Source: a virus | Lineage: Duplodnaviria; Heunggongvirae; Uroviricota; Caudoviricetes | IMG/VR virus record: IMGVR_UViG_3300025310_000004 | Span: 1-59,758 of that record | Reading direction: 5' to 3' (one strand) | Length of the DNA stretch: 59,758 bases | In this document: positions 7,103 through 38,280 of the stretch, one piece after another | Position numbering within the stretch: the stretch's first letter is position 1 | Layout: the number at the start of each line of letters is the position of its first letter | Translations under genes and position numbers: made by a program | Notes under the pieces: generated by a model | Databases searched by the model: none | Seen by the model: only the letters and a program-made list of their open reading frames with translations | What the model was told of the DNA's origin: nothing

Positions 7103-7177
7103 TTATCCACAGCCTGTGGATAACACCTGGGTCAAACGGCCCACGAACAGGCGTTCTGTGGATAACCCTGTGGACAA
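7103..7177. promoter_or_regulatory. Cluster of four DnaA boxes
   Basis: TTATCCACA 7103, TGTGGATAA 7115 and 7157, TGTGGACAA 7169. Confidence 0.75.
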
Positions 7178-23395: not shown

Positions 23396-23446
23396 GCCAC
23401 CGGCCCGGTCCCCTCCGGGGGGCCGGGCCTGCCGACGGCCCACAGG

Positions 23447-23474
23447 CGGCCAGTTGCCCCACGGTCACTGGCCG
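23447..23474. repeat. CGGCCAGT-N12-ACTGGCCG dyad
   Basis: Exact match. Confidence 0.75.
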
Positions 23475-23582
23475 TCCCCTGGCTCGAATGAGCCGAATGA
23501 CCTATGGACCCCGTATTATCATCGGGTGTACCTTGGTCACATCGAGAGGGCGCACGGGGCGTCACCGAGAAGGGAGAACATC

Positions 23583-23897
23583 ATGGACACCATCTGGGCA
23601 GCCACCATCAACACCGAGGGCACCATCGAGTTCCTCACCGAGAAGCCGACCTACGAGGTCCTGCGCGACGCGGTGGGCGGCTACATCGCTCCGGTCACCT
23701 GCCCGCACGGCGACACCGTGTACGTCCACGACGAGGGCCTGCTCATGGGCCTGGACCCCAACATGGGGGCCATGCTCGTGTCGCAGTACCCGCTGCTCGT
23801 GGGCGACGCCATCGTCTGCGGCCCGCTGGACGACGAGGGCGACCACCTGCCCCTCACCGCTCCGGTGGTGCAGTTCCTCCGACGCCTGTCGGAGTGA
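23583..23897 (+). CDS. DUF3846-like protein
   Basis: LRDAVGGYI..V...DEGLLMGLDPN..A...LVGDAIVCG. Confidence 0.7.
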   Translation: MDTIWAATINTEGTIEFLTEKPTYEVLRDAVGGYIAPVTCPHGDTVYVHDEGLLMGLDPNMGAMLVSQYPLLVGDAIVCGPLDDEGDHLPLTAPVVQFLRRLSE

Positions 23898-24112
23898 GCC
23901 GACCGGCCCGGCCCCTCCGGGGGTCGGGCTTCGGCCCGCCACCACTGGCCGCCCCCTGCCCTGGGAGCCACTGGCCGGGGTGGGGCCGACAGCATCTCGT
24001 GACGAGAAACTGTCGAGCGAATGAGCCGAATGACCTATGGTCACGGTGGCGCACGTCCGGCATACTATCCACATCGGCACCACGGGGGTGCCCGACGAAA
24101 GGGGAATCCAAC

Positions 24113-24961: not shown

Positions 24962-24982
24962 TCTTCCCCCCACCCCCGGCCC

Positions 24983-25017
24983 GGAACCCTCAACCTCAAC
25001 TAGAGGTTGAGGGTTCC
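24983..25017. repeat. Perfect copy of the 31-bp palindrome (15-bp arms including flanks)
   Basis: GGAACCCTCAACCTC-AACTA-GAGGTTGAGGGTTCC. Confidence 0.85.
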
Positions 25018-25036
25018 GGCGCGCCCGGCCCCTGGA

Positions 25037-25064
25037 CGGCCAGTACCCCCTGGGCTACTGGCCG
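25037..25064. repeat. CGGCCAGT-N12-ACTGGCCG dyad
   Basis: Exact match. Confidence 0.75.
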
Positions 25065-25155
25065 GGTGCTGGCCTAGGATGATCCGAATGACCTATGGAT
25101 CGCCTATTATCACTCCGGTAAGGTGGGGGCATCCCAACGACGAAAGGAGTTCACC

Positions 25156-25869
25156 ATGACCACCATCGAGATGTTCGAGGTCGGCGGCTGCGTCCGCGAC
25201 GAGTTCATGGGCAAGCGGTCCAAGGACGTGGACTTCGTGGTGCTCGCTCCTTCCTTCGACGCCATGCGCGCCGAGTTGGTCCGGCGGGGCTTCACGATCC
25301 ACGTCGAGAAGCCCGAGTTCGTCACCATCCGCGCGGGTGTGCCCAAGGGCGACCCCCTGCGGGAGCGCACCAAGGACGCGGACTTCGTGCTCGCTCGCAA
25401 GGATGGCCCCACGGCCGACGGCCGACGGCCCGAGTTCGTGGAGCCTGGCGACCTCATGGACGACCTCGCTCGCCGCGACTTCACGGTGAACGCGATCGCC
25501 CGAGCGGTGGACGGCCGGATCATCGACCCCTTCGGTGGTCGGGCTGACATCGAGTTCAGGCGGCTGCGCTTCGTGGGCGACCCCGTGGAGCGCATCACCG
25601 AGGATGGCCTGCGGGTACTGCGGGGCTTCCGCTTCATGGTGACCAAGGGACTCACCCCCACGGGTGAAACCCTGGAAGCCCTGACGCGGCCCCTGGCGAC
25701 CGAGATGCTGGCGAGGGTCAGCACCGAGCGCATCCGCGAGGAGGTGGAGCGCATGCTCGCCTTCGACACGCTCGCCACGCTGGACATCCTGAGCCACACC
25801 ATGCCCGTCGAGATGCGGGACGTGGTGTTCTCCGGTGGCCTGCGCCTGAGCGCCACCATGAAGGGGTGA
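25156..25869 (+). CDS. cca: Class II tRNA nucleotidyltransferase (CCA-adding/poly(A) polymerase family), short
   Basis: VGGCVRD..DVDF, DLARRDFTVNAIA, FVGDP.ERI.ED.LR.LR..RF, VS.ERI.EE. Confidence 0.9.
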   Translation: MTTIEMFEVGGCVRDEFMGKRSKDVDFVVLAPSFDAMRAELVRRGFTIHVEKPEFVTIRAGVPKGDPLRERTKDADFVLARKDGPTADGRRPEFVEPGDLMDDLARRDFTVNAIARAVDGRIIDPFGGRADIEFRRLRFVGDPVERITEDGLRVLRGFRFMVTKGLTPTGETLEALTRPLATEMLARVSTERIREEVERMLAFDTLATLDILSHTMPVEMRDVVFSGGLRLSATMKG

Positions 25870-25985
25870 GGGCTTCGGCCCCCACCCCTTCGGGGCGTGG
25901 AGCGGCCAGTCGAACCCTGGGGCGGCCAGTCGTGCTGGTGTGTGTCGCACTCGGACCGAATGATCCGAATGGCCCATACCCCCGG

Positions 25986-26007
25986 TGTCGCACCTATGCC
26001 ATACTCT
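25986..26007 (+). promoter_or_regulatory. Phage promoter TGTCGCACC-N7-TACTCT
   Basis: Preceded by GAATGATCCGAATGGCCCAT. Confidence 0.75.
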
Positions 26008-26049
26008 CCTTGTCGGCACGGGGCCGACGACGACGAAAGGAGCACCACC

Positions 26050-26292
26050 ATGGCGAACACCGTCAAGACTCGCTACGGGACCATCGACTACCGGCAGGAC
26101 TACCTGTTCGAGCCGGTCGGTCTGGACCTGTTCGATCCCAAGCCGCACCAACCGGAGCCGGGCACCGAGGTCACGCCGATCCGCCCGCCGCACGGGTGCC
26201 CCAACCCCATCCCCATGGGGATGATCTACGTCAACGACGCCGAGACGGGCGAGTTCCGTGGGCTGGTGCTGATCGCCAGCCTCATGGGGTGA
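26050..26292 (+). CDS. Hypothetical protein
   Basis: CGACGAAAGGAG RBS. Confidence 0.7.
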   Translation: MANTVKTRYGTIDYRQDYLFEPVGLDLFDPKPHQPEPGTEVTPIRPPHGCPNPIPMGMIYVNDAETGEFRGLVLIASLMG

Positions 26293-26297
26293 CCGCC

Positions 26298-26495
26298 ATG
26301 GCAGCGATGACCTACAACGAGTGGTACGGCGAGGTGACCGTGGCACTCAACCGGGCACTCAAGCGGTACAACGTCTCCCCCTACGACTACCAGGAGTTGG
26401 AGCACGAGTTCGGGGAAGGGAACTACGACGCCATCCTCGCCGCGGTGAAGCAGCGGAGCACCGACGGCTACTACCGCCCCGCACTCCGCTGGTAG
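26298..26495 (+). CDS. Hypothetical protein
   Basis: Second gene of the cassette. Confidence 0.65.
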   Translation: MAAMTYNEWYGEVTVALNRALKRYNVSPYDYQELEHEFGEGNYDAILAAVKQRSTDGYYRPALRW

Positions 26496-26678
26496 CCGAC
26501 GCCCCGCCCCGTCCCCCCTTCCGGGGCGGGGCTTCGGCCCCCACGACTGGCCGGGTGCGAGGTTCTCGGTAGGCATCGTTCGACAGTAGGGCCGAATGAC
26601 CTATGGACCCCGTACTATCACCCTGCCATACTGGTACTTGCAAGGCACCACGGGGGTGCCAGCAGAAAGGGGATCACC

Positions 26679-26996
26679 ATGATCTATGCACTCTGGTTCG
26701 GCGGGGTGGGCTACGCCCCCGGCGACATGGTGGAGGACCTTGAGTCCTTCCCGTCCCTCGCCGCCGCCAAGGCCGCCCTGTCCGAGCGCTACGCCCGCGG
26801 CTACTCCTTCCGGCAGGACTTCGAGTTCGTCAACCGGGAGCCCGAGTCGGTCTACTGCCCCTGCGTGGAGGACGACTCCCGTATGTGGGTATGGCTCGCC
26901 GCCGACGAGGTGGACGGGGTGACCTACGTCCCCGAGTACCCGGACCGGATCATCGAGTTCGGCCCACGGGGCGGCGTGAACGTCACCGCCGCCTGA
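26679..26996 (+). CDS. Hypothetical protein
   Basis: GAAAGGGG RBS. Confidence 0.7.
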   Translation: MIYALWFGGVGYAPGDMVEDLESFPSLAAAKAALSERYARGYSFRQDFEFVNREPESVYCPCVEDDSRMWVWLAADEVDGVTYVPEYPDRIIEFGPRGGVNVTAA

Positions 26997-27079
26997 CAAC
27001 GTTCCGGGGGTGCCCTCGCGAGGGGGCACCCCTAAGAACGCCTCGCGCGTGCGCTATCGCGTGAGATGTAGGCCCCACA

Positions 27080-27108
27080 CGGCCAGTAGCCCCTACCACC
27101 ACTGGCCG
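27080..27108. repeat. CGGCCAGT-N13-ACTGGCCG dyad
   Basis: Spacer one base longer than usual. Confidence 0.65.
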
Positions 27109-27121
27109 CCACCCCCCCCTC

Positions 27122-27152
27122 AACCCTCAACCTCTACTTGAGGTCGAGGGTT
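27122..27152. repeat. 31-bp palindrome copy
   Basis: AACCCTCAACCTC-TACTT-GAGGTCGAGGGTT. Confidence 0.8.
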
Positions 27153-27180
27153 CGCCCGCGTCACTGGCCGCCCCCGGCCC

Positions 27181-27201
27181 TTGTCCACAGGCTGTGGACA
27201 A
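27181..27201. promoter_or_regulatory. Inverted pair of DnaA boxes
   Basis: TTGTCCACA-GGC-TGTGGACAA. Confidence 0.65.
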
Positions 27202-27223
27202 ACCTGGGGATGACGCACCCCCA

Positions 27224-27273
27224 CCGAATGATCCGAATGACCTATGGACCATGGCGCACCCCACCCCTACTAT
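27224..27273 (+). promoter_or_regulatory. Composite phage promoter of the ardC-like gene
   Basis: CCGAATGATCCGAATGACCTATGG, TGGCGCACC-N7-TACTAT. Confidence 0.75.
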
Positions 27274-27320
27274 GTACCCCATGAGGTCGCCACGGGGGCG
27301 GCCCTAGAAAGGGGAACACC

Positions 27321-28184
27321 ATGAGCACCGATGAGGCACGGCAGGCACTCGACACGCTGCACGCGAGCATCGCGAAGATCACCGACTCCGACGCCTGGCG
27401 CGAGCACCTGGCGGTGCAGGCCCGGTTCCACGACTACAGCCCGCTCAACATCATGTGGATGTGGTGCCAGTGGGAGGCCCGCCGCGCCGAGAACCCCGAC
27501 CTGCCGGAGTTCTCCCAGCCCGCAGCGTTCTCCGCCTGGAAGGACCTGGGTCGCCACGTCCGCAAGGGCGAGAAGGCCCTGAGCGTTCTCGCTCCCATCA
27601 TCGTCACCGACCGCGAGAACCTGGGTCCCGACGGCAAGCCGCGGACCAAGTGCGTCGGGTTCCGCGTGAAGCGGCGCACGTTCGATGTGGCGCAGACTGA
27701 GGGCGACCCCCTCCCCGAGAACCCCGCCATGCCGTCGCTGCTGACGGGCGAGGGCGACCCCGCCACCTGGGAGGCCCTGGTGGCGCACGCCGCGACCCTG
27801 GGGTGCACGGTGCAGGTCACCGACGCCTGCCAGCCCGCGAACGGGGACTACAGCCGGGCGACGGGGCTGATCCGCGTGGCCGAGAGCCTGGACCACGCGC
27901 AGCAGGTCAAGACCCTGCTGCACGAGGTGGCGCACGCCACGCTGCACAGTGGCGACACCGACCTGAGCCGGGCCGAGAAAGAGGTCGAGGCCGAGAGCAC
28001 CGCTTTCGTGGTCGCCGCCCTGCTGGGGTTCGACACCGCGGCCTACAGCGTCGGCTACGTCGCCACCTGGGCGAGCCGGGACGACCATGGCGAGTGCCTG
28101 CGGCGCACGACTGAGCGAGTCGTGAAGGCCGCCCGCACCATCGCCGCAGCCCTGGCGCAGCACCCCGCCACGCTGGCAGCCTGA
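27321..28184 (+). CDS. ardC: ArdC-like antirestriction ssDNA-binding protein with a HEXXH domain
   Basis: RFHDYSPLN, W..LGR.VRKGEKA, FDV.QT.G, LLHEVAH, E.EAES.AFVV, YS.GYV.TW. Confidence 0.85.
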   Translation: MSTDEARQALDTLHASIAKITDSDAWREHLAVQARFHDYSPLNIMWMWCQWEARRAENPDLPEFSQPAAFSAWKDLGRHVRKGEKALSVLAPIIVTDRENLGPDGKPRTKCVGFRVKRRTFDVAQTEGDPLPENPAMPSLLTGEGDPATWEALVAHAATLGCTVQVTDACQPANGDYSRATGLIRVAESLDHAQQVKTLLHEVAHATLHSGDTDLSRAEKEVEAESTAFVVAALLGFDTAAYSVGYVATWASRDDHGECLRRTTERVVKAARTIAAALAQHPATLAA

Positions 28185-28225
28185 GGGCGAGGGGCGGTCC
28201 GAACCTGGGCCGCCCCTCAACCCTC

Positions 28226-28256
28226 AACCCTCAACCTCAAGTAGAGGTCGAGGGTT
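28226..28256. repeat. 31-bp palindrome copy
   Basis: AACCCTCAACCTC-AAGTA-GAGGTCGAGGGTT. Confidence 0.8.
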
Positions 28257-28465
28257 TGGGGCCTGGGTGGGCCAGTCGAGCCCTGCGCCGGGCCAGTCAG
28301 ACCTGGGGGATGGTGAACCCGGCGGTCGCCCCCTGGTCGAGCGGGACGCCCCCAGGGGATCGCCTCGGAGAACGGGCCATACGACCCACTTGACGGGTAG
28401 GTTGTATCATAGGCTACGATGGCGACACGCCAACAGGGGCGAGCAACCCGAAGGGGGTGACCAAC

Positions 28466-28660
28466 ATGAGCAAGCGCAAGCGCAAGCCACAGAAGGCAGG
28501 CACCGTGGCCGAGACGGTCACCTTCATGCGCCGCCAGAACCGCGAGGCCATCGTGGCCGACATGCGGGAGGGGCGGGTGCAGAAGGCTCACACCTTCACC
28601 GATCGCAAGCGCGAGGCACGCCGCACGGCCTGCCGGGGGAAGTTCTCCCCGGCAGACTGA
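28466..28660 (+). CDS. Small basic protein
   Basis: GAAGGGGG RBS, K/R-rich. Confidence 0.65.
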   Translation: MSKRKRKPQKAGTVAETVTFMRRQNREAIVADMREGRVQKAHTFTDRKREARRTACRGKFSPAD

Positions 28661-28940
28661 GCGCAAGACCGAGGGCGGTCCACGTTCCGCCCAGGGGGAA
28701 CCCTCCTGATGGCCGCACCGCTTCGGCGGGGGGCAAGTGTAGGGAGGGAGGTCGAGCAACCCCGAAGCCCCCGGAGGGTCGCGAACCTCCGGGGGTGAAC
28801 GTGGCCGACGTGACTGGCCGCCCGCCCCGGCGCACGGTCCGAAGATGGTCCGAACGGCCTATAGTACGGGATGGCGTAGACGTGCCATACTGTCACCACG
28901 GCAACGCACGGGGCGGGGCCACCGACGAAAGGGGAACTAC

Positions 28941-29228
28941 ATGAGCATGATCGTCACCGGGGGAATCATCGACACCTCCCGGCTCCGGGCACTCGCTGCC
29001 GCATGGCACTCGGGCATGTCCTCGCCGCTCTACGCGCTGGCGTCCTCCGGGGCCATCGTGGACGGCATCGAACGCGAGGTGGAGGAAGCCATCGCGGACG
29101 CCGAGCGGTTCGGCACCACCGACCCGGACTACGCCGCCGACGTGGTGCCCCTGCGCCACCTGCTGACCTACGTCCGACACCACGGCCCGCGCGGCCCGGT
29201 GGAGGGGTGGAGCGACATCCGCTTCTGA
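28941..29228 (+). CDS. Actinophage hypothetical protein
   Basis: WHSGMSSPLYALASSG motif, strong RBS. Confidence 0.7.
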   Translation: MSMIVTGGIIDTSRLRALAAAWHSGMSSPLYALASSGAIVDGIEREVEEAIADAERFGTTDPDYAADVVPLRHLLTYVRHHGPRGPVEGWSDIRF

Positions 29229-29425
29229 GAACGTGGGCGGGAGCAATACCGGGGGTCGCTCCCTCGGGGCGAGGGTCGCCACCTCGCCGGGGCCGTGAGC
29301 GCCCCGCAACCTCCCGCCCTCGCTCGCCGCCTCGCCGCCCTGAGAACGCCTCGGGCGCGTCTGACGCGGGGCACCCTGAGAACGCCTCGGGCGCGGCTGC
29401 CGCGCATATGGCGGGACGCCCCCTG

Positions 29426-29485
29426 CGGCCAGTGGCCGCCCTACTACTGGCCGCACCCCGCCCCCGGAGGCCGAACGGGTGTTCG
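29426..29485. promoter_or_regulatory. 8-12-8 dyad followed by an SOS box
   Basis: Dyad 29426-29453, CGAAC-GGGT-GTTCG 29472-29485. Confidence 0.75.
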
Positions 29486-29506
29486 TGAGTCTGTCGGCCC
29501 CCCACC

Positions 29507-29554
29507 GAATGATCCATCTGGCCTATGGTCAGTGTCGCACCCGTCCTGTATCGT
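29507..29554 (+). promoter_or_regulatory. Composite phage promoter
   Basis: Upstream box plus TGTCGCACC-N7-TATCGT. Confidence 0.75.
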
Positions 29555-29603
29555 TCTCCCCATCGGTGCCACGGGGGCACCGCCGACGAAAGGGGGCCAC
29601 CCT

Positions 29604-29867
29604 ATGGCCGAATCCGAGAGCCGATCCGAGCGGGCGATGTTCGCCGCCGTCTGGGTACTGATCGCGTTCGCCCTGTTCTACTTCGGGGCGCACGTCGTGA
29701 TCGCCGTGCACCGCGGGACCTTCCCGCCCGAGCCGCGCCCGGTGCCCGAGTGCACCGTCTGGGAGGATGGCTCCGCCCGGTGCACCCTGCCGCCCTCGCA
29801 ATGGGTCCCGGCAGGCACCACCCTGAGCGGGTGCAGCGACGACCCTGCCGCCCTCTGCCACGACTGA
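29604..29867 (+). CDS. Small membrane protein
   Basis: One N-terminal TM helix, strong RBS. Confidence 0.7.
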   Translation: MAESESRSERAMFAAVWVLIAFALFYFGAHVVIAVHRGTFPPEPRPVPECTVWEDGSARCTLPPSQWVPAGTTLSGCSDDPAALCHD

Positions 29868-29943
29868 GGCCCGCCCGCCCTCCCCACCAGGGGGGCGGGT
29901 GCGCCCCTGCACTGGCCGCTCCCTCGCCTCGCCGGACGAGGAA

Positions 29944-29989
29944 GGGCCGAATGGCCTATGGAGTTCCTGTCACACCTGACCGATACTAT
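29944..29989 (+). promoter_or_regulatory. Composite phage promoter
   Basis: GGGCCGAATGGCCTATGG, TGTCACACC-N7-TACTAT. Confidence 0.8.
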
Positions 29990-30039
29990 ACCTATGAGCG
30001 GGCCGCACGGGGCGGCCCACCGGCACCACCTGAGAGGGG

Positions 30040-30228
30040 GTGAGCATGGTCAGCACCACCGCAGTCGTCACGCTGTCGGACGGTACCCAGGTCGGGATCA
30101 CCGTCACCGATGGCGAGGTGACCTGGGTGGCGGAGCGCCCGACGCCGGGCGCATCCTGGGGACCGCCTCTGCGGCGTCAGGATGAGGAGTGGCGTCACGA
30201 GCGCGACACCTTCGCCATCCGCGACTGA
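30040..30228 (+). CDS. Hypothetical protein
   Basis: GAGGGGG RBS. Confidence 0.65.
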   Translation: MSMVSTTAVVTLSDGTQVGITVTDGEVTWVAERPTPGASWGPPLRRQDEEWRHERDTFAIRD

Positions 30229-30435
30229 ATCGGATTCGGCCCCCGCCGGGGGGGTGGCAACAGAAACCCCGGCCCCCTCAGGGGGGATCATCTCCTCAGC
30301 GTTGCGCGACGCGATCCGGCACCGCGCACCCTGAATCACACAGTGAGGCGGTTCGACTCCGCCGCCCGAGGGGGACCCGGTTGGTCACTGTGCAGGGGCC
30401 GGGGTAGGGAGGTGGTCCCCCCTGAGGGGTGCGGT

Positions 30436-30463
30436 CGGCCAGTGCGGCCCTGGGAACTGGCCG
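30436..30463. repeat. CGGCCAGT-N12-ACTGGCCG dyad
   Basis: Exact match. Confidence 0.75.
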
Positions 30464-30704
30464 CCCTGGGCCTGGGGTGGACGGGGGAGAGGTCGCCCCC
30501 TCCCCCGTCGCCCTCTGTTGCGGCGGTGCCGCTAGTGGGTAGCACCCTCTCTCCGGGCGGGGCCAGCCGCCCACGTCCTGGCCGACGTGAGTGCTCGTCT
30601 GTTGCACCGAGGCTCCTACTTGAGAGTGATACCGCCCACTAGGGGCACCCCCTGAGGGGTGGGGGAGTTCTGTTGCCGCGCCTCCCCCGTGCGCCGAGTC
30701 TGAG

Positions 30705-30872
30705 TCAGTCCTGAGCCTGAGCGGCTACGGCGGCCCGCCGCGCCTTCGCCGCGGCCCGCTGCGCCCCCCGACGCTCCTGCCGACGCTTGTCGGCCGCAGC
30801 GTTCCGCTCGTCCCGCTTGTCGCGGAAGTCGGTGCGGGTGGCTCGCTCCATGTTGAGCGATCCCTGTGCCAT
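30705..30872 (-). CDS. Small basic protein (55 aa, not in the ORF track)
   Basis: MAQGSLNMERATRTDFRDKRDER..., GAAGGGGG RBS. Confidence 0.6.
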   Translation of the reverse strand: MAQGSLNMERATRTDFRDKRDERNAAADKRRQERRGAQRAAAKARRAAVAAQAQD

Positions 30873-30996
30873 CTGTTCACCCCCTTCGGGTGTCCCTTCC
30901 CCGGCGGCCCCGTGCCGTCGTGGTATGTATGTATTATCGGCCCTGCCACCGAGGAAGTGAATAGGTCATTCGGATCATATCTCGGGGGGCCGACAC

Positions 30997-31082
30997 CGAA
31001 CGGGTGTTCGAGGGCGTGCCCCCGGCCAGTTCGCCCCCCAGCACTGGCCGACCTGGGCCTCTGCGGGCCGAACACGCGTTCG
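30997..31082. promoter_or_regulatory. SOS box, 8-12-8 dyad and second SOS box between divergent promoters
   Basis: CGAAC-N4-GTTCG at 30997 and 31069, dyad at 31023-31050. Confidence 0.75.
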
Positions 31083-31094
31083 CCCGGCAAGGTA

Positions 31095-31137
31095 GGGCCG
31101 AATGGCCTATGGTACTGTCGTACCCGTTTGATACTAT
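31095..31137 (+). promoter_or_regulatory. Composite phage promoter
   Basis: Upstream box plus TGTCGTACC-N7-TACTAT. Confidence 0.7.
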
Positions 31138-31183
31138 GTCCCTGTCGGGCCGCACGGGGCGGCCGACAGAAGGGAGACTCACC

Positions 31184-31369
31184 ATGGCAACGCTCACCGC
31201 AGACGAGAAGCGCGAGGCCATCGCCCACGCTCGGGGCTTCGAGATCGAGGACCTTGAGGAAGCGATGATGGACGGAGGGATCGAGACGGCAGACGGCTGC
31301 TGGGTCGAGCCGGACGGGCGGTGCGCCCACGGGTACCCCTCCCCCCTCCGCATCCTCGGCTACATCTGA
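31184..31369 (+). CDS. Conserved small phage protein
   Basis: CWVEPDGRCAHGYPSPL..LG.I. Confidence 0.7.
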   Translation: MATLTADEKREAIAHARGFEIEDLEEAMMDGGIETADGCWVEPDGRCAHGYPSPLRILGYI

Positions 31370-31428
31370 GCCGCACGGGGTCGGCCCTACGGGGTCGGCC
31401 CCATCGGCGCGCCCGCCGACGCCCTGGG

Positions 31429-31490
31429 CGGCCAATTCCCCCGCCACCACTGGCCGCAGCCCGGCCCTGCGGCGGCCGAACGCCTGTTCG
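31429..31490. promoter_or_regulatory. Imperfect 8-12-8 dyad and an SOS box
   Basis: CGGCCAAT-N12-ACTGGCCG, CGAAC-GCCT-GTTCG at 31477. Confidence 0.7.
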
Positions 31491-31714
31491 ATCGTCGGCC
31501 CCGTCGGATATGATCCGAATGGCCTACTTGACGTACCGGCCCCGTACTATAGGATTGGCTCATACCCGCTGGGAAGCGGCACCGGCCCTAGATGCAGCGT
31601 GGCGGTTTGGCACCGCAGACCAAAGGCCAGCAATCGCAACATGCGACCATGAGGCGGCCCCACGGGGGGGCGGCCCTGAGTGCACCGAAAGGGGGTGAAC
31701 ATAAGGGGATCAAC

Positions 31715-31918
31715 ATGGACTTCACGGTCTGGGCACTCAAGGGCGACGGCACCGCCGAGGTGGTGGCCGAAGGGGTGGACGGCGAGCGCGCCGAGTCCAT
31801 CGCTCGACACCCGTCGCTGAGCGGTTGTCGGGTGGCGGTGCTGCCGACCTGGGCGGCGGGGCCGGTCCCCACGTCCCCGGCGGTGCTGGCCGCCATGGCG
31901 GCCGAGCGGGGCAACTGA
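31715..31918 (+). CDS. Hypothetical protein
   Basis: AAGGGG RBS. Confidence 0.6.
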   Translation: MDFTVWALKGDGTAEVVAEGVDGERAESIARHPSLSGCRVAVLPTWAAGPVPTSPAVLAAMAAERGN

Positions 31919-31977
31919 GCCCCGCCGAGGTCCCGCCCCTCACGGGGGGCGGGGCTTCGCCGCGCCCGCACTGGCCG

Positions 31978-32073
31978 AACCCTCAACCTCAACCTGAGGT
32001 TGAGACTCGCAACCCTCAACCTCAACTAGACGTTGAGGGTTGGCCAGTTACCCCTGGACCGAACGGGTGTTCG
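31978..32073. repeat. Two palindrome copies and an SOS box
   Basis: AACCCTCAACCTC units at 31978 and about 32012, SOS box 32060-32073. Confidence 0.75.
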
Positions 32074-32084
32074 GCCCGAAAGTT

Positions 32085-32130
32085 GGGCCGAATGACCTAT
32101 TCACTTCCTGTCACGGGTGACCGATACTAT
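32085..32130 (+). promoter_or_regulatory. Composite phage promoter
   Basis: Upstream box plus TGTCACGGG-N7-TACTAT. Confidence 0.7.
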
Positions 32131-32174
32131 ACATGTGAGGCCGCCACGGGGGTGGCCCACCGAAAGGGGAAGTC

Positions 32175-32387
32175 ATGCACGGGAGCATCACCACCGAGCC
32201 GATGGGCGAGGCGCACAAGGTCGAGAAGTTCGACCACCGCCCCGACCGGACCGAGCGGGAGCGGGCGAGCAAGGCCCGCCGACAGGGCCGACGGGCCGAC
32301 CGCCGGACCGCCGCCCGCCGCCGCTACGAGGATGAGCAGCGGGGGGCCGACCTCATGGCTCGCCGCCACGGGGTCACCGCCGACTGA
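32175..32387 (+). CDS. Small Arg-rich protein
   Basis: GAAAGGGG RBS. Confidence 0.65.
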   Translation: MHGSITTEPMGEAHKVEKFDHRPDRTERERASKARRQGRRADRRTAARRRYEDEQRGADLMARRHGVTAD

Positions 32388-32485
32388 GGCCCGCCACCGG
32401 GGGCACCCCACGGGGTGCCCCTTCGGCGCGCCCGCCCACGGCACTGGCCGCCCGCCCCGCCCGCCCGAGCGGCCCGCCGAACTTA

Positions 32486-32528
32486 GGGCCGAATGGCCTA
32501 TGTACCTGTCGCACCGTTCCTGTATGAT
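32486..32528 (+). promoter_or_regulatory. Composite phage promoter
   Basis: Upstream box plus TGTCGCACC-N7-TATGAT. Confidence 0.8.
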
Positions 32529-32575
32529 CTACTCAAGAGGTCGCCACGGGGGCGGCCGCCACGAAAGGGGTCACC

Positions 32576-32752
32576 ATGACTCGCAAGGACTTCACCGCCA
32601 TCGCCCAGATCATCGCCGAGGTGCCCGAGCAGGGCGCAGGGCCGGAGTGGCTGGCGAGCGCCTTCGCCGCCTTCCTCGCCGGGACGAACCCCCGGTTCGA
32701 CCGGGACCGCTTCATGCGGGCCTGTGGCGTCGGCCACCTCGCGGACAACTGA
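32576..32752 (+). CDS. Conserved small phage protein (58 aa, not in the ORF track)
   Basis: MTRKDF.AIA...NPRFDRDRF..ACG. Confidence 0.75.
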   Translation: MTRKDFTAIAQIIAEVPEQGAGPEWLASAFAAFLAGTNPRFDRDRFMRACGVGHLADN

Positions 32753-32817
32753 GCCGCCCGCCACGGGGCCGCCCTTCGGGGCGGCCCTTCGGCGCGCCCC
32801 GCCCCCGGCACTGGCCG

Positions 32818-32848
32818 AACCCTCACCCTCCACCCGAGGTTGAGGGTT
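32818..32848. repeat. 31-bp palindrome copy
   Basis: AACCCTCACCCTC-CACCC-GAGGTTGAGGGTT. Confidence 0.7.
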
Positions 32849-32982
32849 GCGTTCTCACTGGCCGCCCGCCCGACCTTGGGGCAGGTAGGGCCGAATGACC
32901 TATGGACCCCCTACTATCACTCGTGCCATGATGAGGGCACGAGGTCGCCACGGGGGCGGCCCGCAACCCGAAGGGGACCACC

Positions 32983-33216
32983 ATGACCACCTACGCCTAC
33001 GACGTGGCCGAGATTTCGGCCGCCTGCCGCCTCTGCGGCGACGTGCACTTCGCCATCGTGGCCGAGGCCGATTTCGTCCGGTTCTACTGCGAGGGCGAAC
33101 TCGTGCAGGTCGCCTTCCCCGAGGCCACGCCCGAGGTGCGCGAGATCGCCATGGCCTACCGGCCGAACGGCTACTACGTCTGCCCCGCCTGCTGGGAGGC
33201 CATGGGCGACGAGTGA
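32983..33216 (+). CDS. Small Zn-finger protein
   Basis: CRLC...CPACW, strong RBS. Confidence 0.7.
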   Translation: MTTYAYDVAEISAACRLCGDVHFAIVAEADFVRFYCEGELVQVAFPEATPEVREIAMAYRPNGYYVCPACWEAMGDE

Positions 33217-33459
33217 CCGCCCGCCACGGGGGCACCCCACGGGGTGCCCCTTCGGCGCGCCTACCACCCTCAACCCTCAACCCTCACCCTCAACCTCAGG
33301 TCGAGGGTCGGAGGCCCCCGGCGGCCAGTCCATAGGGTCTAGAGGCATGGCACCGGCCAGTCGAACTAGGCCCCGGCCAGTCGAATGCCCCTCTCCTCTC
33401 GCAACGCGTGACGCGTGTAGGGGCAGGGGGTCGAACCCCCCGCCCCCCTCGCGCTCGCC

Positions 33460-33678
33460 TCAGTCGTAGAGGCTCACGCTCAGTTCCCACGCCCGGAGCC
33501 ACGACTCCATCGTGGGGCACAGGTCCTTCGCCTCCCACCACAGGACCTCCATGGCGGCGGTGTCCTCGGCGTCATCGCCGTAGGTGTCGAGCACCCAGGA
33601 CGACGCGAGAGCGTGGAGGGCGAGCAGGCTCGCCGCCCCGAGCAGGTTGTCCAGGGTGGTGGGCTGGGTGGTGTCCAT
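33460..33678 (-). CDS. Hypothetical protein
   Basis: GAAAGGGG RBS, promoter at 33726-33747. Confidence 0.7.
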   Translation of the reverse strand: MDTTQPTTLDNLLGAASLLALHALASSWVLDTYGDDAEDTAAMEVLWWEAKDLCPTMESWLRAWELSVSLYD

Positions 33679-33725
33679 CGTGGTCCCCTTTCGGTCGAGC
33701 ACCCCCGTGGTGCTCGCTTACAGAC

Positions 33726-33747
33726 ATAGTATCGGCAGGGTGTGACA
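33726..33747 (-). promoter_or_regulatory. Phage promoter TGTCACACC-N7-TACTAT
   Basis: Recurrent motif. Confidence 0.8.
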
Positions 33748-33787
33748 GGAACTTGAGCCATCCGCCGAAGATGTGCCGAACGGCCTA

Positions 33788-33981
33788 CGAACATCCGTTC
33801 GCCCCCTCCGACCGAACGGGTGTTCGGTCGCCGCCCGACGGTACTGGCCGCAACCCTCAACCTGGGGTCGAGGGTTGGTCGAACCCTCACCCTCAACTAG
33901 AGGTTGAGAGTTTGCGGCGAACTGGCCGCCGCCCCCCTCCGGTGGCGCAGACCGAACGGCTGTTCGCCGAACGGCTGTTCG
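33788..33981. promoter_or_regulatory. Four SOS boxes around palindrome copies
   Basis: CGAAC-N4-GTTCG at 33788, 33813, 33953, 33968; AACCCTC palindromes at 33851-33912. Confidence 0.8.
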
Positions 33982-34021
33982 TGGTCCGAACGGATCATTC
34001 GCACCGGATCGCTCAAGTTCC

Positions 34022-34043
34022 TGTCACACCGGGCCGATACTAT
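34022..34043 (+). promoter_or_regulatory. Phage promoter TGTCACACC-N7-TACTAT
   Basis: Recurrent motif. Confidence 0.8.
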
Positions 34044-34086
34044 GACTGTGAGGCCGCCACGGGGGTGGCCGACGAAGGGAGACACC

Positions 34087-34272
34087 ATGGACCCGAACGC
34101 TGCACTCCGCAACATGCGCGAGGCCATCTCGCGCACCTGGGAGGCCGAGGGCGAGGCCGACCGCCTCGCTGCGGCCGAGGACCTCGCCGTTGCGGCCGAG
34201 GCCCTGGACTCGTGGCTCAGCACCGGGGGCTTCCTCCCCTCCGGCTGGGCTGCGGCCGAACCGGCCGCCTGA
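34087..34272 (+). CDS. Conserved actinophage small protein
   Basis: MDPNAAL...ALDSWLS.GGFLP..W. Confidence 0.8.
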   Translation: MDPNAALRNMREAISRTWEAEGEADRLAAAEDLAVAAEALDSWLSTGGFLPSGWAAAEPAA

Positions 34273-34337
34273 GTCCAACCCTCAACCGGGGCGCCCCCCT
34301 CAACCGGGGGCGCTTCGGCGCGCCCGCCCTAAGAACG

Positions 34338-34368
34338 AACCCTCGACCTCAACTTGAGGTTGAGGGTT
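34338..34368. repeat. 31-bp palindrome copy
   Basis: AACCCTCGACCTC-AACTT-GAGGTTGAGGGTT. Confidence 0.8.
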
Positions 34369-34535
34369 GGGCCGCGGCTAGTACCTCCTTGGCGCTGGGC
34401 GCTGAGAACGACTGCGGCCCGGCATACGGCCCCCCGCCCCCCCAGGAAGGACGCACGGGGGGCATACCCGACTGGCCGAGGCCCGGCCTCTGCTTAGGCG
34501 GCCCGGCCCGGCTCCGCCGCCGCCCGCCTCCCGAC

Positions 34536-34598
34536 CGAACACGCGTTCGGGCCGAACAAGCGTTCGGGCCAAACACGCGTTCGGCGAACGGCCGTTCG
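34536..34598. promoter_or_regulatory. Tandem array of four SOS boxes
   Basis: Boxes at 34536, 34553, 34570 (CAAAC variant), 34585. Confidence 0.8.
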
Positions 34599-34881
34599 TG
34601 GGCCGATCGGCCCACCACGCCCGACGGGGCGCGGCGAGCGCCACCACGGGCGCCGACGACGACCACACCCGACGGGCGCGCCGACGCCGACGGCGTAGCG
34701 GGCGCAACCACTACCACGACCACGGCGCCGCGGTCAACCACCACGCCGACGACGACCACGCCGACGACGCCGACGACGCCGGGCACGGGAGGGTACTTGA
34801 CCACGCCGACGGGATCGCCTAAGGTAACGACGACCAACCACCACGGCGCCACCACGGCGCCGCCCGACCACGGGAGACACC

Positions 34882-35319
34882 ATGACCACCACGACCGACA
34901 CCATGACCACCACGACGGGCGGGCGCATCGTGCGCGCCTACGCGGTGAGCGTGAGCATGGCAGGGTACCTGCCGAACGACGGCGCCGTGGCGCTCTACGC
35001 CGATGCCTACGACGCCGTGCGCGACGCCGTGGACACGTTGCGCCGTGACGCCGACGACGTTTGGTCACTCCACGACGACGACGCCGACATGGCGCGCGAT
35101 GCCGCGGCACCCTACGACGACGCGGCAAGCGCGCTCGCCGCGTCGGCCGACGCCGTGGCCGCGCACCTACTCACGGCGCCGATGGACTACGGGCACGACG
35201 TCATCGTGCGATCGGTCTACGGTCCAACCATGGTCTACCGCGTCGCGGTCGTCGCGGCGTGCTGCCCGTCGGTCGTGGACGGGCGCGGCCACGACGGCGC
35301 GCCGTGGTCGTGCGATTGA
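34882..35319 (+). CDS. Low-complexity hypothetical protein
   Basis: TTGACC-N17-TAAGGT promoter, GGGAG RBS; no E, K, Q or F. Confidence 0.65.
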   Translation: MTTTTDTMTTTTGGRIVRAYAVSVSMAGYLPNDGAVALYADAYDAVRDAVDTLRRDADDVWSLHDDDADMARDAAAPYDDAASALAASADAVAAHLLTAPMDYGHDVIVRSVYGPTMVYRVAVVAACCPSVVDGRGHDGAPWSCD

Positions 35320-35493
35320 CCACGACGACCACCACGACGACCACGGGCGCCCGCTCACGACGGGCGCCCGTGGCGCGTCACGACGCCGACGACGACGGGC
35401 ACGGGAGGGTACTTGACCACGCCGACGGGATCGCCTAAGGTAACGACGACCAACCACCACGGCGCCGACGGCGCCACGACCACGGGAGACACC

Positions 35494-35880
35494 ATGACCA
35501 CTCTCACGCCCGCCACCACGCCCGACGCGCCGACCACGCCCGACACCTACGCACGGCGCCTAGTGGCCGCGGGATTCACGCTCCACGACGCCCGACGCAT
35601 CGCACGCGACGCCGACGCCCGCGGCGCGTTCACGCCGACCACGGCGCCCGCCTACGACGACGCCGACACCGCGGCGGGCGCGGGATGGTCGGTCGTGGCG
35701 CTCCACGCCGACGGGCGCGGAGAGATTCTGACCACCACGCCGACGCACGGCGCCGCGGCCACGCTCGCCGCGGGCTACGACCGCGCCGCGACCATCGGCG
35801 CCGCCACGGGCGCCCGTCGGCGCTCGCGCATCGTGGTCGTGCCCGCCTACGACGCCGACGCCGTGGCGGGCGCGCGATGA
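35494..35880 (+). CDS. Low-complexity hypothetical protein
   Basis: Duplicated promoter/RBS block upstream. Confidence 0.6.
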   Translation: MTTLTPATTPDAPTTPDTYARRLVAAGFTLHDARRIARDADARGAFTPTTAPAYDDADTAAGAGWSVVALHADGRGEILTTTPTHGAAATLAAGYDRAATIGAATGARRRSRIVVVPAYDADAVAGAR

Positions 35881-35960
35881 CCACCGCGCCGACGGGCGGG
35901 CGCACCACGGCGCCCGCCCACCACGACCGACCGACCACCACGACCACCACGGGAGACACC

Positions 35961-36539
35961 ATGACCACGCTCACGCTCACGCCCGCCACGACCGACGCCG
36001 TGCGATTCACCACGGCGCCCGCTACGCCGTTCACGCCGACGCCCGTGGTGCTCACCGCGGGAACGGTCGTCGCGATTCGTTGGGCAGGGTACAACGGCGT
36101 GCGCGGCGCCACGGCGTTGCACAAGACCGAAACGGTCGTGAGCGTGGCCACGACCGACGGCGTGCGCGGCGTGCTCACGCTCACGGGCGGCGCTTACAAG
36201 AACGGCGCCACCACGCGCACGCTCAACACTCACCGCGCCGATGGGCGCCCGTCGTCGCAGATTCTCGGCGCCTACCCTGTCGGCGCCGTGGTGGCGGCGC
36301 TCGCCGCGGTCATGGGCGCCACGCCCGCCACGACCGACGCCGACGACCACGCCGACGCCGACGGCGCCACGACCGACGACCACGACCACGACGGCGACGG
36401 CGTGCCCGTGGTGGGCGGGCGCAGCGTGGCGGCGCGGCGAGGGTACGCGCGGGCTAAGCGGGCGGCGCGTCGCACGCTACGACGCGTGGAGCGCCGCGAC
36501 GCGATCCGCGCAGCGTGGCACGACCACGCCGACGCGTGA
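35961..36539 (+). CDS. Low-complexity hypothetical protein
   Basis: GGGAG RBS, basic C-terminus. Confidence 0.6.
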   Translation: MTTLTLTPATTDAVRFTTAPATPFTPTPVVLTAGTVVAIRWAGYNGVRGATALHKTETVVSVATTDGVRGVLTLTGGAYKNGATTRTLNTHRADGRPSSQILGAYPVGAVVAALAAVMGATPATTDADDHADADGATTDDHDHDGDGVPVVGGRSVAARRGYARAKRAARRTLRRVERRDAIRAAWHDHADA

Positions 36540-37040
36540 CCGCGGGCGCCGACGGGCGCCGACCACGACCACGGGCGCCCACCACGGGCGCCCGTGGCGC
36601 GTCCACGCCGACGCCCGCTCACGGGCACGCGTGGCACTCACGGGCACCACGACGCCCGACGGCGCGCCACGGGCGGCGCTCACGGGCGCCTAGGCGGCGC
36701 TCACGGGCGCCTAGGCGGCGCCCGTGCCCGTGCCCGTTGTGCCCGACCACGGGAGACACCACGACGAACGACGCGACGACGAACGACGCGACGAAACGAC
36801 GCGACGAAACGACGACCGACGACGACGCCCGACCACGGGCGCCACGCCGACGCCCGCTCACGGGCACGCGTGGCACTCACGGGCACCACGACGCCCGACG
36901 GCGACGACCGACGACGACGACCGGCGACGACGACGAACGACGCGACGAAACGACGCGACGAAACGACGCGACGAAACGACGCGACGACCGACGACCGACG
37001 ACCGACGACGACGCCCGACCACGGGCGCCACGCTCACGCC
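36540..37040. repeat. Non-coding T-depleted micro-repeat block
   Basis: 57-bp duplication (36604 and 36844), ACGACGCGACGAA tandems, T-free runs of over 100 nt. Confidence 0.8.
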
Positions 37041-37145
37041 CGAACGCGTGTTCGGCCGAACGCGTGTTCGTGGGCCGAACGACCTACGAACGTCTGTTCG
37101 CCCGAACGCGTGTTCGGCGCGTCGCGAGTACCGAACGCGTGTTCG
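37041..37145. promoter_or_regulatory. Array of five SOS boxes
   Basis: CGAAC-N4-GTTCG at 37041, 37057, 37087, 37103, 37132. Confidence 0.85.
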
Positions 37146-37685
37146 AGCGCCCCACCCCCCCTCCCCCACACCCCCACACATGGACGCCGGATAATAGCAC
37201 CTACCCCGACATTTCAATCCGCTACCTAGAAGTTGGGATAATAGGGTAGAACTCCGACTCCCTCCCTCCATCTCGGTGTGGATCGACGTGCGTTGTGATC
37301 CCTCCCCCCCTGATGCAGTGGACCAACGGGTCGATGGGTCGTCGGCGGACTCGGGGTCCTCGGACAACTCACGACATCCGGCGGCCTGATAATAGGGTGT
37401 AGGTATGCCCACTATTATCGTTGTGACCGATGGGTCACAATCGTGCACATCTCCCCAATGTGACTGATCGTGCACACCGGCTTTCCATTCGCTGTCGGAA
37501 CCGCACCGCAACCTACGAGTGGGTGTGAGGTTCCACCCCGGAATCGACAATCGGAAAGCGCTACTGAGCAACTCAGTGCGCGCCCAGATGGAAAGCAAAG
37601 TTGCACTTAGGGGGCCTAAGGGTAAGCAGAGTTTCCATTCGGGGGGCTAAGGGTGCATGGAGACAACCTTGGGCCGACAAAGGCG

Positions 37686-37713
37686 AAGGCCCCCGACCGG
37701 AGTCGAGGGCCTT
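37686..37713 (-). terminator. Hairpin terminator for the leftward operon
   Basis: 12-bp stem with one G-U pair on the minus strand. Confidence 0.55.
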
Positions 37714-37848
37714 GCCCGAAAGGAGTGACACCATGGTGACCAAACCACGGAGTCGGCGTCTGCCATAGGGACCAACCACCGGCAGACACCTGATGGCCAC
37801 GGGAGTGACCGAGACGCACTCTACCAGGCGAGTGCGACACTGAGATGC

Positions 37849-38280
37849 TCAGTCTGACGCCTTGGCGGCGGCAGCCTTCTTGCGGGCCTTGCGGCGGTCA
37901 CGCAGGTACGCCGACCATGCCGTGCGGCACTCCTCGCAGCGGCAGTCCCAATTGGAGTAGCCGCTCACACCATGCTGGCGAGGCTCGCGCTCGCCCTTGC
38001 GGAACCGACTGACCCGACGGTCCTTGATCTGGCGCTGGACCTCACGGTTGGCTGCCTTGCAGCCGTCGCAGCGACACCCACGGGTGTAGGCGGCTGCCGA
38101 TGGACACGGGCGGGTGATCTCGGGCTCGTACCCGCTCAAGATGCCCTCGGACCCTGCCCAGCGCTGTACGGTGCGCTTGGACACCCCAGCCAACTCCGCT
38201 GCTGCGGTTGCCCCCTGCTCGGCGTAGACCTTGAGCACCTTCTCACGGGGGACGGTGGTGGTTTCGGTTGCAGTCGCCAT
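37849..38280 (-). CDS. HTH plus Zn-binding (CRC..C) protein
   Basis: AAELAGVSKRTVQRW; Y..GCRCDGC, HG..GY...CRCEEC. Confidence 0.75.
   Translation of the reverse strand: MATATETTTVPREKVLKVYAEQGATAAAELAGVSKRTVQRWAGSEGILSGYEPEITRPCPSAAAYTRGCRCDGCKAANREVQRQIKDRRVSRFRKGEREPRQHGVSGYSNWDCRCEECRTAWSAYLRDRRKARKKAAAAKASD

Follow-up and report, generated by a model that had tools for sequence, protein, structure and literature searches.

Why would a large phage carry many copies of what appears to be the DNA-damage repressor (LexA) binding site of its host, and which protein would read them? The question was raised by a 59,758-nt stretch (the window) of the 171,330-bp virus record IMGVR_UViG_3300025310_000004, for which an earlier note had listed 17 perfect CGAAC-N4-GTTCG sites in 29472-37145, all intergenic and many in tandem arrays. 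The note proposed that LexA gates the whole early region, as a damage-sensing lysis decision without a cI, or that the arrays titrate LexA to induce SOS.

The observation made in the note was confirmed. A motif search of the window returned 17 matches at the listed coordinates against 0.10 expected, and none of 100 shuffles reached 17. Two imperfect copies (34570 and 7144) were also found, and no further perfect copy exists in the whole record. Every spacer is R-N-N-Y, and the arms are invariant while the flanks differ. Centre-to-centre spacing in the arrays is 15 bp at 33953/33968, 17, 17 and 15 bp across 34536-34598, and 16 bp at 37041/37057 and at 37087/37103. All sites are intergenic under our gene model, which was based on the repeated layout of promoter, hairpin, SD and ATG. 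The long ORFs that overlap boxes are composition artefacts, with low GC3 or an antisense position to a real gene. The boxes and associated elements are as follows.

7144..7157: outlying 1-mismatch box CGAACAGGCGTTCT with an intact GAAC-RNNY-GTTC core.
29472..29485: LexA-type box CGAACGGGTGTTCG, 47 nt upstream of the -26 element at 29533, followed after 6 nt by a second element, TGTCGG-N10-AATGAT (29492-29513).
29533..29554, plus strand: PafBC-type promoter TGTCGC-N10-TATCGT driving the 87-aa ORF 29604-29867.
30997..31010: LexA-type box, abutting on the minus strand (1 nt) TGTCGG-N10-TATGAT (30974-30995) and the M2 copy at 30962-30973, at the head of the minus-strand 55-aa ORF 30705-30872.
31069..31082: LexA-type box, 15 nt upstream of M2 (31098-31109) and 33 nt upstream of the -26 element at 31116.
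31116..31137, plus strand: PafBC-type promoter TGTCGT-N10-TACTAT driving the 61-aa ORF 31184-31369.
31477..31490: LexA-type box, 2 nt before CGTCGG-N10-TATGAT (31493-31514) and the M2 copy at 31515-31526.
32060..32073: LexA-type box, 14 nt upstream of M2 (32088-32099) and 35 nt upstream of the -26 element at 32109.
32109..32130, plus strand: PafBC-type promoter TGTCAC-N10-TACTAT driving the 70-aa ORF 32175-32387.
33726..33747, minus strand: PafBC-type promoter TGTCAC-N10-TACTAT driving the 72-aa ORF 33460-33678.
33788..33826: two LexA-type boxes (33788 and 33813), 40 and 65 nt upstream of the minus-strand promoter at 33747-33726.
33953..33981: two tandem LexA-type boxes with a 15-bp period, 55 and 40 nt upstream of the -26 element at 34022.
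34022..34043, plus strand: PafBC-type promoter TGTCAC-N10-TACTAT driving the 61-aa ORF 34087-34272, which matches phrog_865.
34536..34598: array A, three perfect boxes and one 1-mismatch box (34570), with no promoter within about 190 bp; it forms the left edge of the T-poor block, and a wastewater variant contig lacks about 18 nt inside it.
34599..37040, plus strand: T-poor, ACG-rich block bracketed by arrays A and B, with three ORFs (34882-35319, 35494-35880, 35961-36539), two copies of TTGACC-N17-TAAGGT (34797 and 35413) and 500 bp of T-free tandem repeats.
37041..37145: array B, five perfect boxes and one M2-like CCGAACGACCTA (37075-37086); it forms the right edge of the T-poor block and is followed by a C-rich tract and GATAATAG repeats.

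To find out which protein would bind these sites, candidates encoded by the phage were examined first. Profile searches found no LexA_DNA_bind or Peptidase_S24 homologue at E<=1. Furthermore, among 119 array-bearing IMG/VR loci, only SSB and one 58-aa cassette ORFan of the phage recur in more than three, and neither looks like a DNA-binding regulator. The host was considered next. The phage has two WhiB genes, and its SSB is closest to Acidimicrobiia: the 80 loci kept in that comparison were all Actinomycetota MAGs, almost all labelled Acidimicrobiia-lineage, at 51-70% identity. Based on this kinship, the WhiB genes and the shared promoter type described below, the probable host is inferred to be in the Acidimicrobiales.

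Of 29 recA loci sampled across that order, 27 carry CGAAC-RNNY-GTTCG with at most one mismatch. Four boxes also lie beside a lexA gene confirmed by Pfam. The palindrome agrees with published actinobacterial operators, TCGAAC(N4)GTTCGA in M. tuberculosis (PMC3381160) and tCGAAC-N4-GNNCGa in S. venezuelae (PMC9380542). The outer T/A is mostly C/G in the phage, but C or T also occupies that position in the host-clade recA operators. The identification of the boxes as LexA operators is thus strongly supported at the sequence level, and host LexA is the likely ligand.

The promoters near the boxes belong to a class read in Actinobacteria by the ssDNA sensor PafBC. The phage genome has 52 copies of TGTC[AG]N-N10-TAnnnT against 1.6 expected, and 34 copies of the stricter host-type pattern against 0 in the control. 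Their consensus is TGTCRCACCC-N4-TGn-TAnnnT, without a conserved -35 hexamer in the column counts, which matches the PafBC motif tGTCgg(N10)tA(N3)T (PMC8635444). In the host order, TGTCACACCCC-N-TAnnnT precedes recA in 20 of 29 loci, and the same -26 promoter precedes radA and the gene divergent from lexA. Four of five candidate host genomes have two WYL-domain matches about 1 kb apart on one strand, as expected for pafB-pafC. The phage has no WYL protein or sigma region 2 of its own, which leaves the host factor or an unrecognised phage factor as the putative activator. Dual SOS-box and RecA-NDp control is known for recA, uvrA and uvrC (PMC8223512).

The position of the boxes is also shared with the recA control region. 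In 18 of the recA loci the box lies upstream of this promoter with gaps of 31-51 nt, or 70-78 nt for second boxes. Five phage cassette heads (seven boxes) repeat this layout, with gaps of 33, 35, 40, 40 and 47 nt, plus 55 and 65 nt for second boxes. The operator, the -26 element (TGTCACACCC), its N10 spacing to TAnnnT and the order of the elements are the same. However, in host recA the box fills the spacer of a sigma-A promoter (TTGAY, box, TACAnT), whereas no such -35 or -10 surrounds the phage boxes, so classical occlusion of RNA polymerase is not available. The interval in the phage is occupied by a phage-specific element, M2 (aTGATCCGAATGRCCTAtgg), and the genes controlled are tiny ORFans, not repair genes. 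Only three boxes abut a weak -26-like element, and nine or ten, in the two arrays, have no promoter within 150 bp or more. The box-to-M2 distance varies from 4 to 24 nt, which argues against a rigid regulatory architecture.

Related phages were also searched. A 113-kb relative (G001), whose 401-aa protein, CCA-adding enzyme and HTH protein are 66%, 63% and 46% identical, has 14 GAAC-RNNY-GTTC cores against a control of 1. Eleven of them lie in its cassette region, including one upstream of the orthologue of the 61-aa gene. We found no paper describing LexA-box arrays or PafBC-type promoter arrays in uncultured phages.

Based on these results, the interpretation in the note was only partly supported. 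Gating of the whole early region is too broad, because boxes mark only about nine intergenic spots in 29.4-37.1 kb, while M2 heads at 21-29 kb and at 29947, 32489 and 32891 have no perfect box. A lysis decision is not supported, because no Phage_integrase, Resolvase, AAA_31 (ParA) or Peptidase_S24 match was found in the 171-kb record, which CheckV rates as 100% complete. This points to a virulent phage. The titration idea is not excluded. LexA-linked control of a subset of early cassettes plus LexA sequestration is more likely than a lysis-lysogeny switch.

We consider it most likely (probability roughly 0.6) that the boxes are operators for the host's LexA, built into the regulatory heads of small, self-contained early-gene cassettes of a virulent actinophage. 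In this view, LexA in an undamaged cell would occupy the sites just upstream of the promoter and its M2 element and damp those cassettes. When phage replication or DNA damage produces ssDNA, RecA-driven LexA cleavage would free them, and PafBC would switch on this promoter class. The two arrays would add LexA-dependent insulation around a T-poor block that cannot encode U-tract terminators, and a large LexA-binding capacity. The sites, the selection on them, their identity with the host-clade operator and the shared geometry were shown by the analysis. Binding by LexA in vivo and its release on cleavage, activation by PafBC, the direction of the effect on transcription and the sink effect are inferred from sequence alone, as is the host. 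LexA centred at about -70 to -100 has no established effect on a PafBC-type promoter, the genes behind the boxes are ORFans with no damage-related function, and possible phage DNA modification could prevent LexA binding. The number of boxes also partly reflects duplication of cassette heads, since GGGT and GCGT spacers occur four times each.

Of the alternatives, a LexA sponge as the main function survives best, although it remains unlikely. The densely packed boxes would then exist chiefly to sequester LexA as the phage genome replicates, derepressing the host SOS regulon (recA, ruv, translesion polymerases, division inhibitor) without DNA damage, with secondary effects on neighbouring phage genes. 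All 17 sites are perfect, whereas host operators are often imperfect, and the two arrays of 4-5 boxes have 1-3 bp linkers and no promoter. A candidate host genome holds only 12-24 perfect boxes in 3-5.5 Mb, some of them by chance, and M. tuberculosis has about 25 LexA peaks (PMC3381160). It is inferred that one phage genome therefore matches the whole regulon and that 100 copies would outnumber it a hundredfold. Array length differs between strains, and tight 15-17-bp arrays recur in many unrelated IMG/VR phages with GC of 0.35-0.68. However, the recA-like distance kept by seven boxes and the three boxes abutting a -26-like element are not needed for a sink. A sink could be a single array anywhere, yet eight of nine clusters lie in cassette heads, and the benefit of SOS induction to a lytic phage is unproven.

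It is doubtful that the palindrome is the operator of a phage-encoded or other non-LexA dimeric protein, a global regulator acting at variable distances, with the likeness of the palindrome to the SOS box due to coincidence or competition. The sites do lie at variable distances from promoters, as with KorB-type regulators, and phage LexA-DBD homologues such as GIL01 gp6 exist elsewhere. The phage and G001 also share the HTH protein (37849-38280), whose gene lies 0.7-1.3 kb from a box in both. However, this protein carries homing-endonuclease-type Cys repeats, and the boxes lie beyond its 3' end, not in its promoter. In addition to the negative searches above, the arms and the RNNY rule match the host-clade recA and lexA operators exactly, the box-promoter spacing matches recA, and any such site in an actinobacterial cell would meet LexA anyway.

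Equally doubtful is a hitch-hiking relic, in which a host recA-type control region was captured once and its box spread passively with mobile promoter-terminator cassettes (PeSL-like shuffling) and local tandem duplication, without selection for LexA binding. The region is indeed built of repeated heads (a terminator, an ACTGGCCG tag, M2 and a promoter), identical spacers recur, contigs of other samples join distant heads and change array length, and recombination between promoter and stem-loop cassettes is documented in T4-type phages (PMC2839356). This reading is opposed by the ten intact arm positions in 17 copies whose flanks have diverged beyond alignment, by the retention of the box where the sigma-A -35 and -10 of host recA are lost, and by the 14 cores with the RNNY rule kept in a relative with only 46-66% protein identity.

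Besides recA, three known systems are close. In the lexA autoregulatory regions, such as M. tuberculosis lexA/Rv2719c with four SOS boxes (PMC3381160) and the Acidimicrobiales lexA loci seen here, several perfect boxes also stand in tandem in one intergenic region. However, host boxes are 29-33 bp apart, on the same face of the helix, and lie downstream of a promoter, whereas the phage arrays have 15-17 bp periods, 4-5 boxes and no promoter. Host LexA directly governs transcription of the temperate tectivirus GIL01, together with gp7 at promoter P1 (PMC4551915). CTXphi and coliphage 186 tum are further cases. In those temperate elements one to three boxes overlap one switch promoter that decides induction, whereas here a probably virulent 171-kb phage has 17 boxes over nine intergenic sites, mostly upstream of promoters. 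The PeSL (promoter-early stem-loop) cassettes in hyperplastic regions of T4-type phages (PMC2839356) are likewise arrays of small non-essential ORFan genes, each with its own early promoter and terminator hairpin, and their repeated heads can recombine. PeSLs carry plain sigma-70 promoters and no host repressor site, while the heads here carry a PafBC-type promoter, M2, an 8-bp tag and, in a subset, LexA boxes.

A bolder reading, held only tentatively, is that this probably virulent phage runs much of its transcription through both arms of the host DNA-damage response. PafBC would serve as the activator of its 34-52 '-26' promoters, and the clustered operators would both hold back a subset of early cassettes and, as genome copies rise, strip LexA from the chromosome and force SOS without damage. 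The recA-like heads would then be a captured host control region turned into a mobile viral regulatory cassette.

Direct use of host LexA is known for a few temperate elements, where it decides induction. Here a probably lytic phage carries about as many perfect LexA sites as a whole candidate host chromosome and reproduces the recA box-to-promoter geometry of the host lineage. The matching of lineage-specific promoter and operator dialects also gives a sequence-only way to assign uncultured phages to hosts. The number of sites and their geometry point to a way of timing viral early genes, or of manipulating the host, through the DNA-damage response, and since tight LexA-box arrays recur in many uncultured phages, the principle may be general.

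A pattern search for CGAAC-N4-GTTCG returned exactly the 17 perfect sites (LexA-type boxes) that the earlier note had claimed, whereas dinucleotide-preserving shuffles predicted 0.10, and none of 100 shuffles reached 17. When mismatches were allowed, the near-copies at 34570 and 7144, which had also been claimed, were recovered. The window is the first 59.8 kb of a 171,330-bp IMG/VR virus record (referred to as G000) that was rated as complete by CheckV, and since the whole record holds no further perfect copy, all 17 fall within 7.7 kb. The four central bases are always R-N-N-Y, while the flanks show no consensus beyond a preference for C at -1, and the spacing in the arrays is 15-17 bp. The observation made in the earlier note was thus confirmed.

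The 21-37 kb stretch is a series of small, self-contained cassettes. Each cassette consists, in order, of a terminator hairpin; an ACTGGCCG tag or dyad, often with CCCTCAACC palindromes; in a subset, one or two boxes; an element named M2 here (aTGATCCGAATGRCCTAtgg); a promoter; a 5' leader hairpin with a CACGGGG loop; and a Shine-Dalgarno sequence followed by an ORF of 55-87 codons. The core of M2 has 18 copies in the record, 17 of which lie at 21-37 kb. M2 lies just upstream of the early-cassette promoters, and in a short promoter class its 3' half, TGRCCT, sits exactly N10 before a TAYTAT -10, while its left half resembles a LexA half-site. The ORFs behind the boxes are ORFans, none of which has a Pfam family, although two match PHROGs of unknown or HNH-associated function. 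Under this gene model all boxes are intergenic, as the earlier note had stated, and the region is only about 45% coding. The main features of the region are as follows.

21254-37086: stretch of M2 copies, for example at 23493, 24026, 25084, 26592, 27233, 29947, 31098, 32088, 32489 and 32891
29186-29274: an 89-nt tRNA-Met (CAT) called by ARAGORN inside the cassette region, the only tRNA in the window and unusually long
34536-34598: array A, three perfect boxes and one imperfect box
34599-37040: block almost free of T on the plus strand
37041-37145: array B, five boxes
37146-37840: non-coding boundary after array B, with a C-rich tract and GATAATAG repeats
37839-37818, minus strand: TGTCGC-N10-TAGAGT promoter within this boundary

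Arrays A and B are the two largest arrays, and they bracket the 2.4-kb T-poor block. The block holds three ORFs rich in Thr, Ala, Asp, Arg and His, a duplicated sigma-A-like TTGACC-N17-TAAGGT promoter module (34797 and 35413), and 500 bp of T-free tandem repeats, and it cannot encode U-tract terminators. The minus-strand promoter beyond array B reads into about 600 bp with no ORF, so this boundary is a candidate small RNA or a genome-end region. No Rfam family was found in the window.

The phage has two WhiB genes, which marks it as an actinophage. No tyrosine integrase, serine recombinase or ParA was found, and neither a LexA DNA-binding domain nor an S24 peptidase was detected. It is therefore probably virulent and encodes no LexA-like protein. 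Distant cultured kin were found through a Ro-like protein, namely Streptomyces phages BRock, pSt2308, GiJojo and Satis and Arthrobacter phage Atuin. These have 0-1 box each, so the trait is not general to large actinophages.

The cassette promoters have the form TGTC[AG]N-N10-TAnnnT, a pattern that occurs 52 times in the record against 1.6 expected. The consensus is TGTCRCACCC-N4-TGn-TAnnnT, with no conserved -35. This promoter family is spread over the whole genome, with examples in the window at 325, 6016, 7342, 13182 (minus strand), 23016, 39615 (minus strand), 42696 and 54903. This is the geometry reported for the PafBC (RecA-NDp) promoter, tGTCgg(N10)tA(N3)T, in which PafBC reads the GTC triplet at -26 and adapts SigA (PMC8635444). 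No WYL-domain protein and no sigma region 2 were found in the phage.

To identify the probable host lineage, genomes were searched with the phage SSB (65969-66481 of the record, outside the window). The 80 best of 524 genome hits were kept, and all of these are Actinomycetota MAGs, nearly all labelled Acidimicrobiales, Acidimicrobiaceae, Acidimicrobiia or Microthrixaceae, at 51-70% identity. This gives a host-clade assignment for this uncultured phage. Five such genomes and 29 recA loci sampled evenly across the order were then examined. The five genomes, of 3.1-5.5 Mb, hold only 12-24 perfect boxes each, including clusters of 3-4 boxes spaced 29-33 bp, one of which lies beside a Pfam-confirmed lexA. 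Such lexA control regions with 3-4 perfect boxes were seen at G003:4387359-4387600 (locus L259) and G004:1004029-1004268, in two Acidimicrobiales genomes. In L259 a PafBC-type promoter reads through three of the boxes into a small membrane-protein gene divergent from lexA, a possible SOS division inhibitor. The strict pattern TGTCRCACC-N7-TAnnnT is rare in these genomes, at 0-5 copies with a control of 0, and the copies stand before recA (two genomes), radA, and the gene divergent from lexA. Four of the five genomes have two WYL-domain matches about 1 kb apart on one strand, as expected for pafB-pafC.

Of the 29 recA loci, 27 have a CGAAC-RNNY-GTTCG box with at most one mismatch, 20 have the TGTC promoter, and 18 have both. 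Where both occur, the order is always the box, then 31-51 nt (70-78 nt for a second box), then TGTCACACCCC. The phage heads have gaps of 33, 35, 40, 40 and 47 nt, with 55 and 65 nt for second boxes, and the phage also carries 34 copies of the strict host-type promoter pattern, against 0 in the control. So three things match the probable host lineage: the operator, the lineage-specific form of the -26 element, and the distance between them. The C at -1, which departs from the textbook T, also occurs in host recA operators, where it is the last base of the -35 hexamer TTGAC|C.

However, the phage heads also differ from the host. In host recA the box fills the spacer of a sigma-A promoter (TTGAY, box, TACAnT), which is a classical occlusion arrangement, whereas none of the phage boxes has such a -35 and -10 around it. 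Three phage boxes (29472, 30997 and 31477) abut a second, weaker (T/C)GTCGGCCCC-N-(T/A)ATGAT element that runs into M2. The rest sit about 60-100 nt upstream of the predicted start, or far from any promoter, and the box-to-M2 distances vary from 4 to 24 nt. Host arrays are spaced about three helical turns apart, while the phage arrays are spaced about one and a half turns apart.

Relatives of the phage were searched for in several ways. Megablast of 29-38 kb against GenBank phages found nothing, and single-protein searches in IMG/VR with the ArdC-like protein and with DnaB found no relative. The 401-aa protein found only distant carriers of a mobile gene. The M2 pattern gave single hits in IMG/VR that looked like chance, although one of them, locus L151, proved to be a true relative once tblastn was used. 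When all phage ORFs were compared by tblastn with the loci retrieved in this analysis, IMGVR_UViG_3300020233_000057 (referred to as G001; 113 kb, GC about 0.59 over the 40 kb read) was picked out as a true relative, in which the 401-aa protein is 66% identical, the CCA-adding enzyme 63% and the HTH protein 46%. G001 has 5 perfect boxes and 14 GAAC-RNNY-GTTC cores, against a control of 1. Eleven cores lie in its 53-66 kb cassette region and include a triple array, and a 1-mismatch box (a GTAC arm, so not among the 14 cores) lies upstream of the orthologue of the 61-aa gene. At 66120-66500 of G001 a triple LexA-box array is followed by a G/T-rich repeat tract with two GTGATAGTATGGG units, a strand-skewed, repeat-rich boundary like the one beside array B in G000. 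The trait is thus kept across considerable divergence, although alignment of the orthologous intergenic region of G000 and G001 was uninformative because the sequences are too diverged.

Across IMG/VR, at least 119 stretches carry two boxes 1-3 bp apart, and many have 4-9 boxes at the same 15-17-bp period with RNNY spacers, over a GC range of 0.35-0.68. For example, unrelated uncultured phages (IMG/VR loci L007, L021, L046, L048, L068, L077, L091 and L093) carry 4-7 perfect CGAAC-RNNY-GTTCG boxes each, many in tight 15-17-bp arrays. The phenomenon looks general. Among the 119 array-bearing loci, the phage ORFs found in more than three are SSB and one 58-aa cassette ORFan, neither of which has regulator features. 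That argues for a conserved host factor as the binder, not a shared phage regulator.

Near-identical phage DNA occurs in a second study, from a hot spring, and diverged variants occur in sludge, wastewater and estuary samples. In short contigs from other samples (sequencing runs X2 and X4), distant cassette heads are joined (29550 to 32890, with only 29 nt on the shorter side), and one variant contig lacks about 18 nt inside array A (34550-34571). These are hints of cassette shuffling and of variation in array copy number between strains.

Other readings of the box were also considered. An RNA-hairpin reading was rejected because the stem would be only 5 bp and all arms are identical, with no compensatory change. 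Readings as parS, iteron or pac sites were rejected because the sites are dispersed in nine promoter-linked clusters and the sequence is that of the SOS box.

Phage use of host LexA is known for temperate elements (GIL01, PMC4551915), PafBC promoters and dual SOS/PafBC control of recA are known (PMC8223512; PMC8635444), and mobile promoter-terminator cassettes are known in T4-type phages (PMC2839356). However, literature searches for LexA-box arrays, titration or decoys in virulent phages or actinophages found no description of these, nor of a virulent phage that reproduces the box-promoter geometry of the host's recA and adds dense arrays without a promoter. The direct comparison with the host lineage is what the present case adds.

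Host LexA as the ligand is now well supported, with a probability of about 0.85 by our estimate. The boxes and their match with the operators of the probable host lineage are read directly from the sequences, whereas binding of LexA to the phage sites, what it does there and the activity of PafBC on the phage promoters are inferred. The interpretation given in the earlier note was partly supported: LexA gating of 'the whole early region' is too broad, and a 'lysis decision without a cI' does not fit a phage with no lysogeny genes. Our best reading is that a block of early cassettes uses a recA-derived or recA-like dual control head, in which LexA bound just upstream of M2 and the promoter would damp these cassettes until ssDNA leads to LexA cleavage. 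In this view the same signal activates the PafBC-type promoter class, and the arrays without a promoter, which bracket the block that cannot encode U-tract terminators, could act as LexA-dependent roadblocks.

The main rival reading is that a LexA sink is itself the selected function. A phage-encoded binder and a passive hitch-hiking relic are less likely. One phage genome carries about as many perfect boxes as a whole host chromosome, and M. tuberculosis has 25 LexA peaks, so replication must create a large LexA sink if LexA binds at all. The genome-wide promoter family is identical in form to the promoter before recA, radA and the lexA-divergent gene of Acidimicrobiales, and the phage may depend on host PafBC for much of its transcription.
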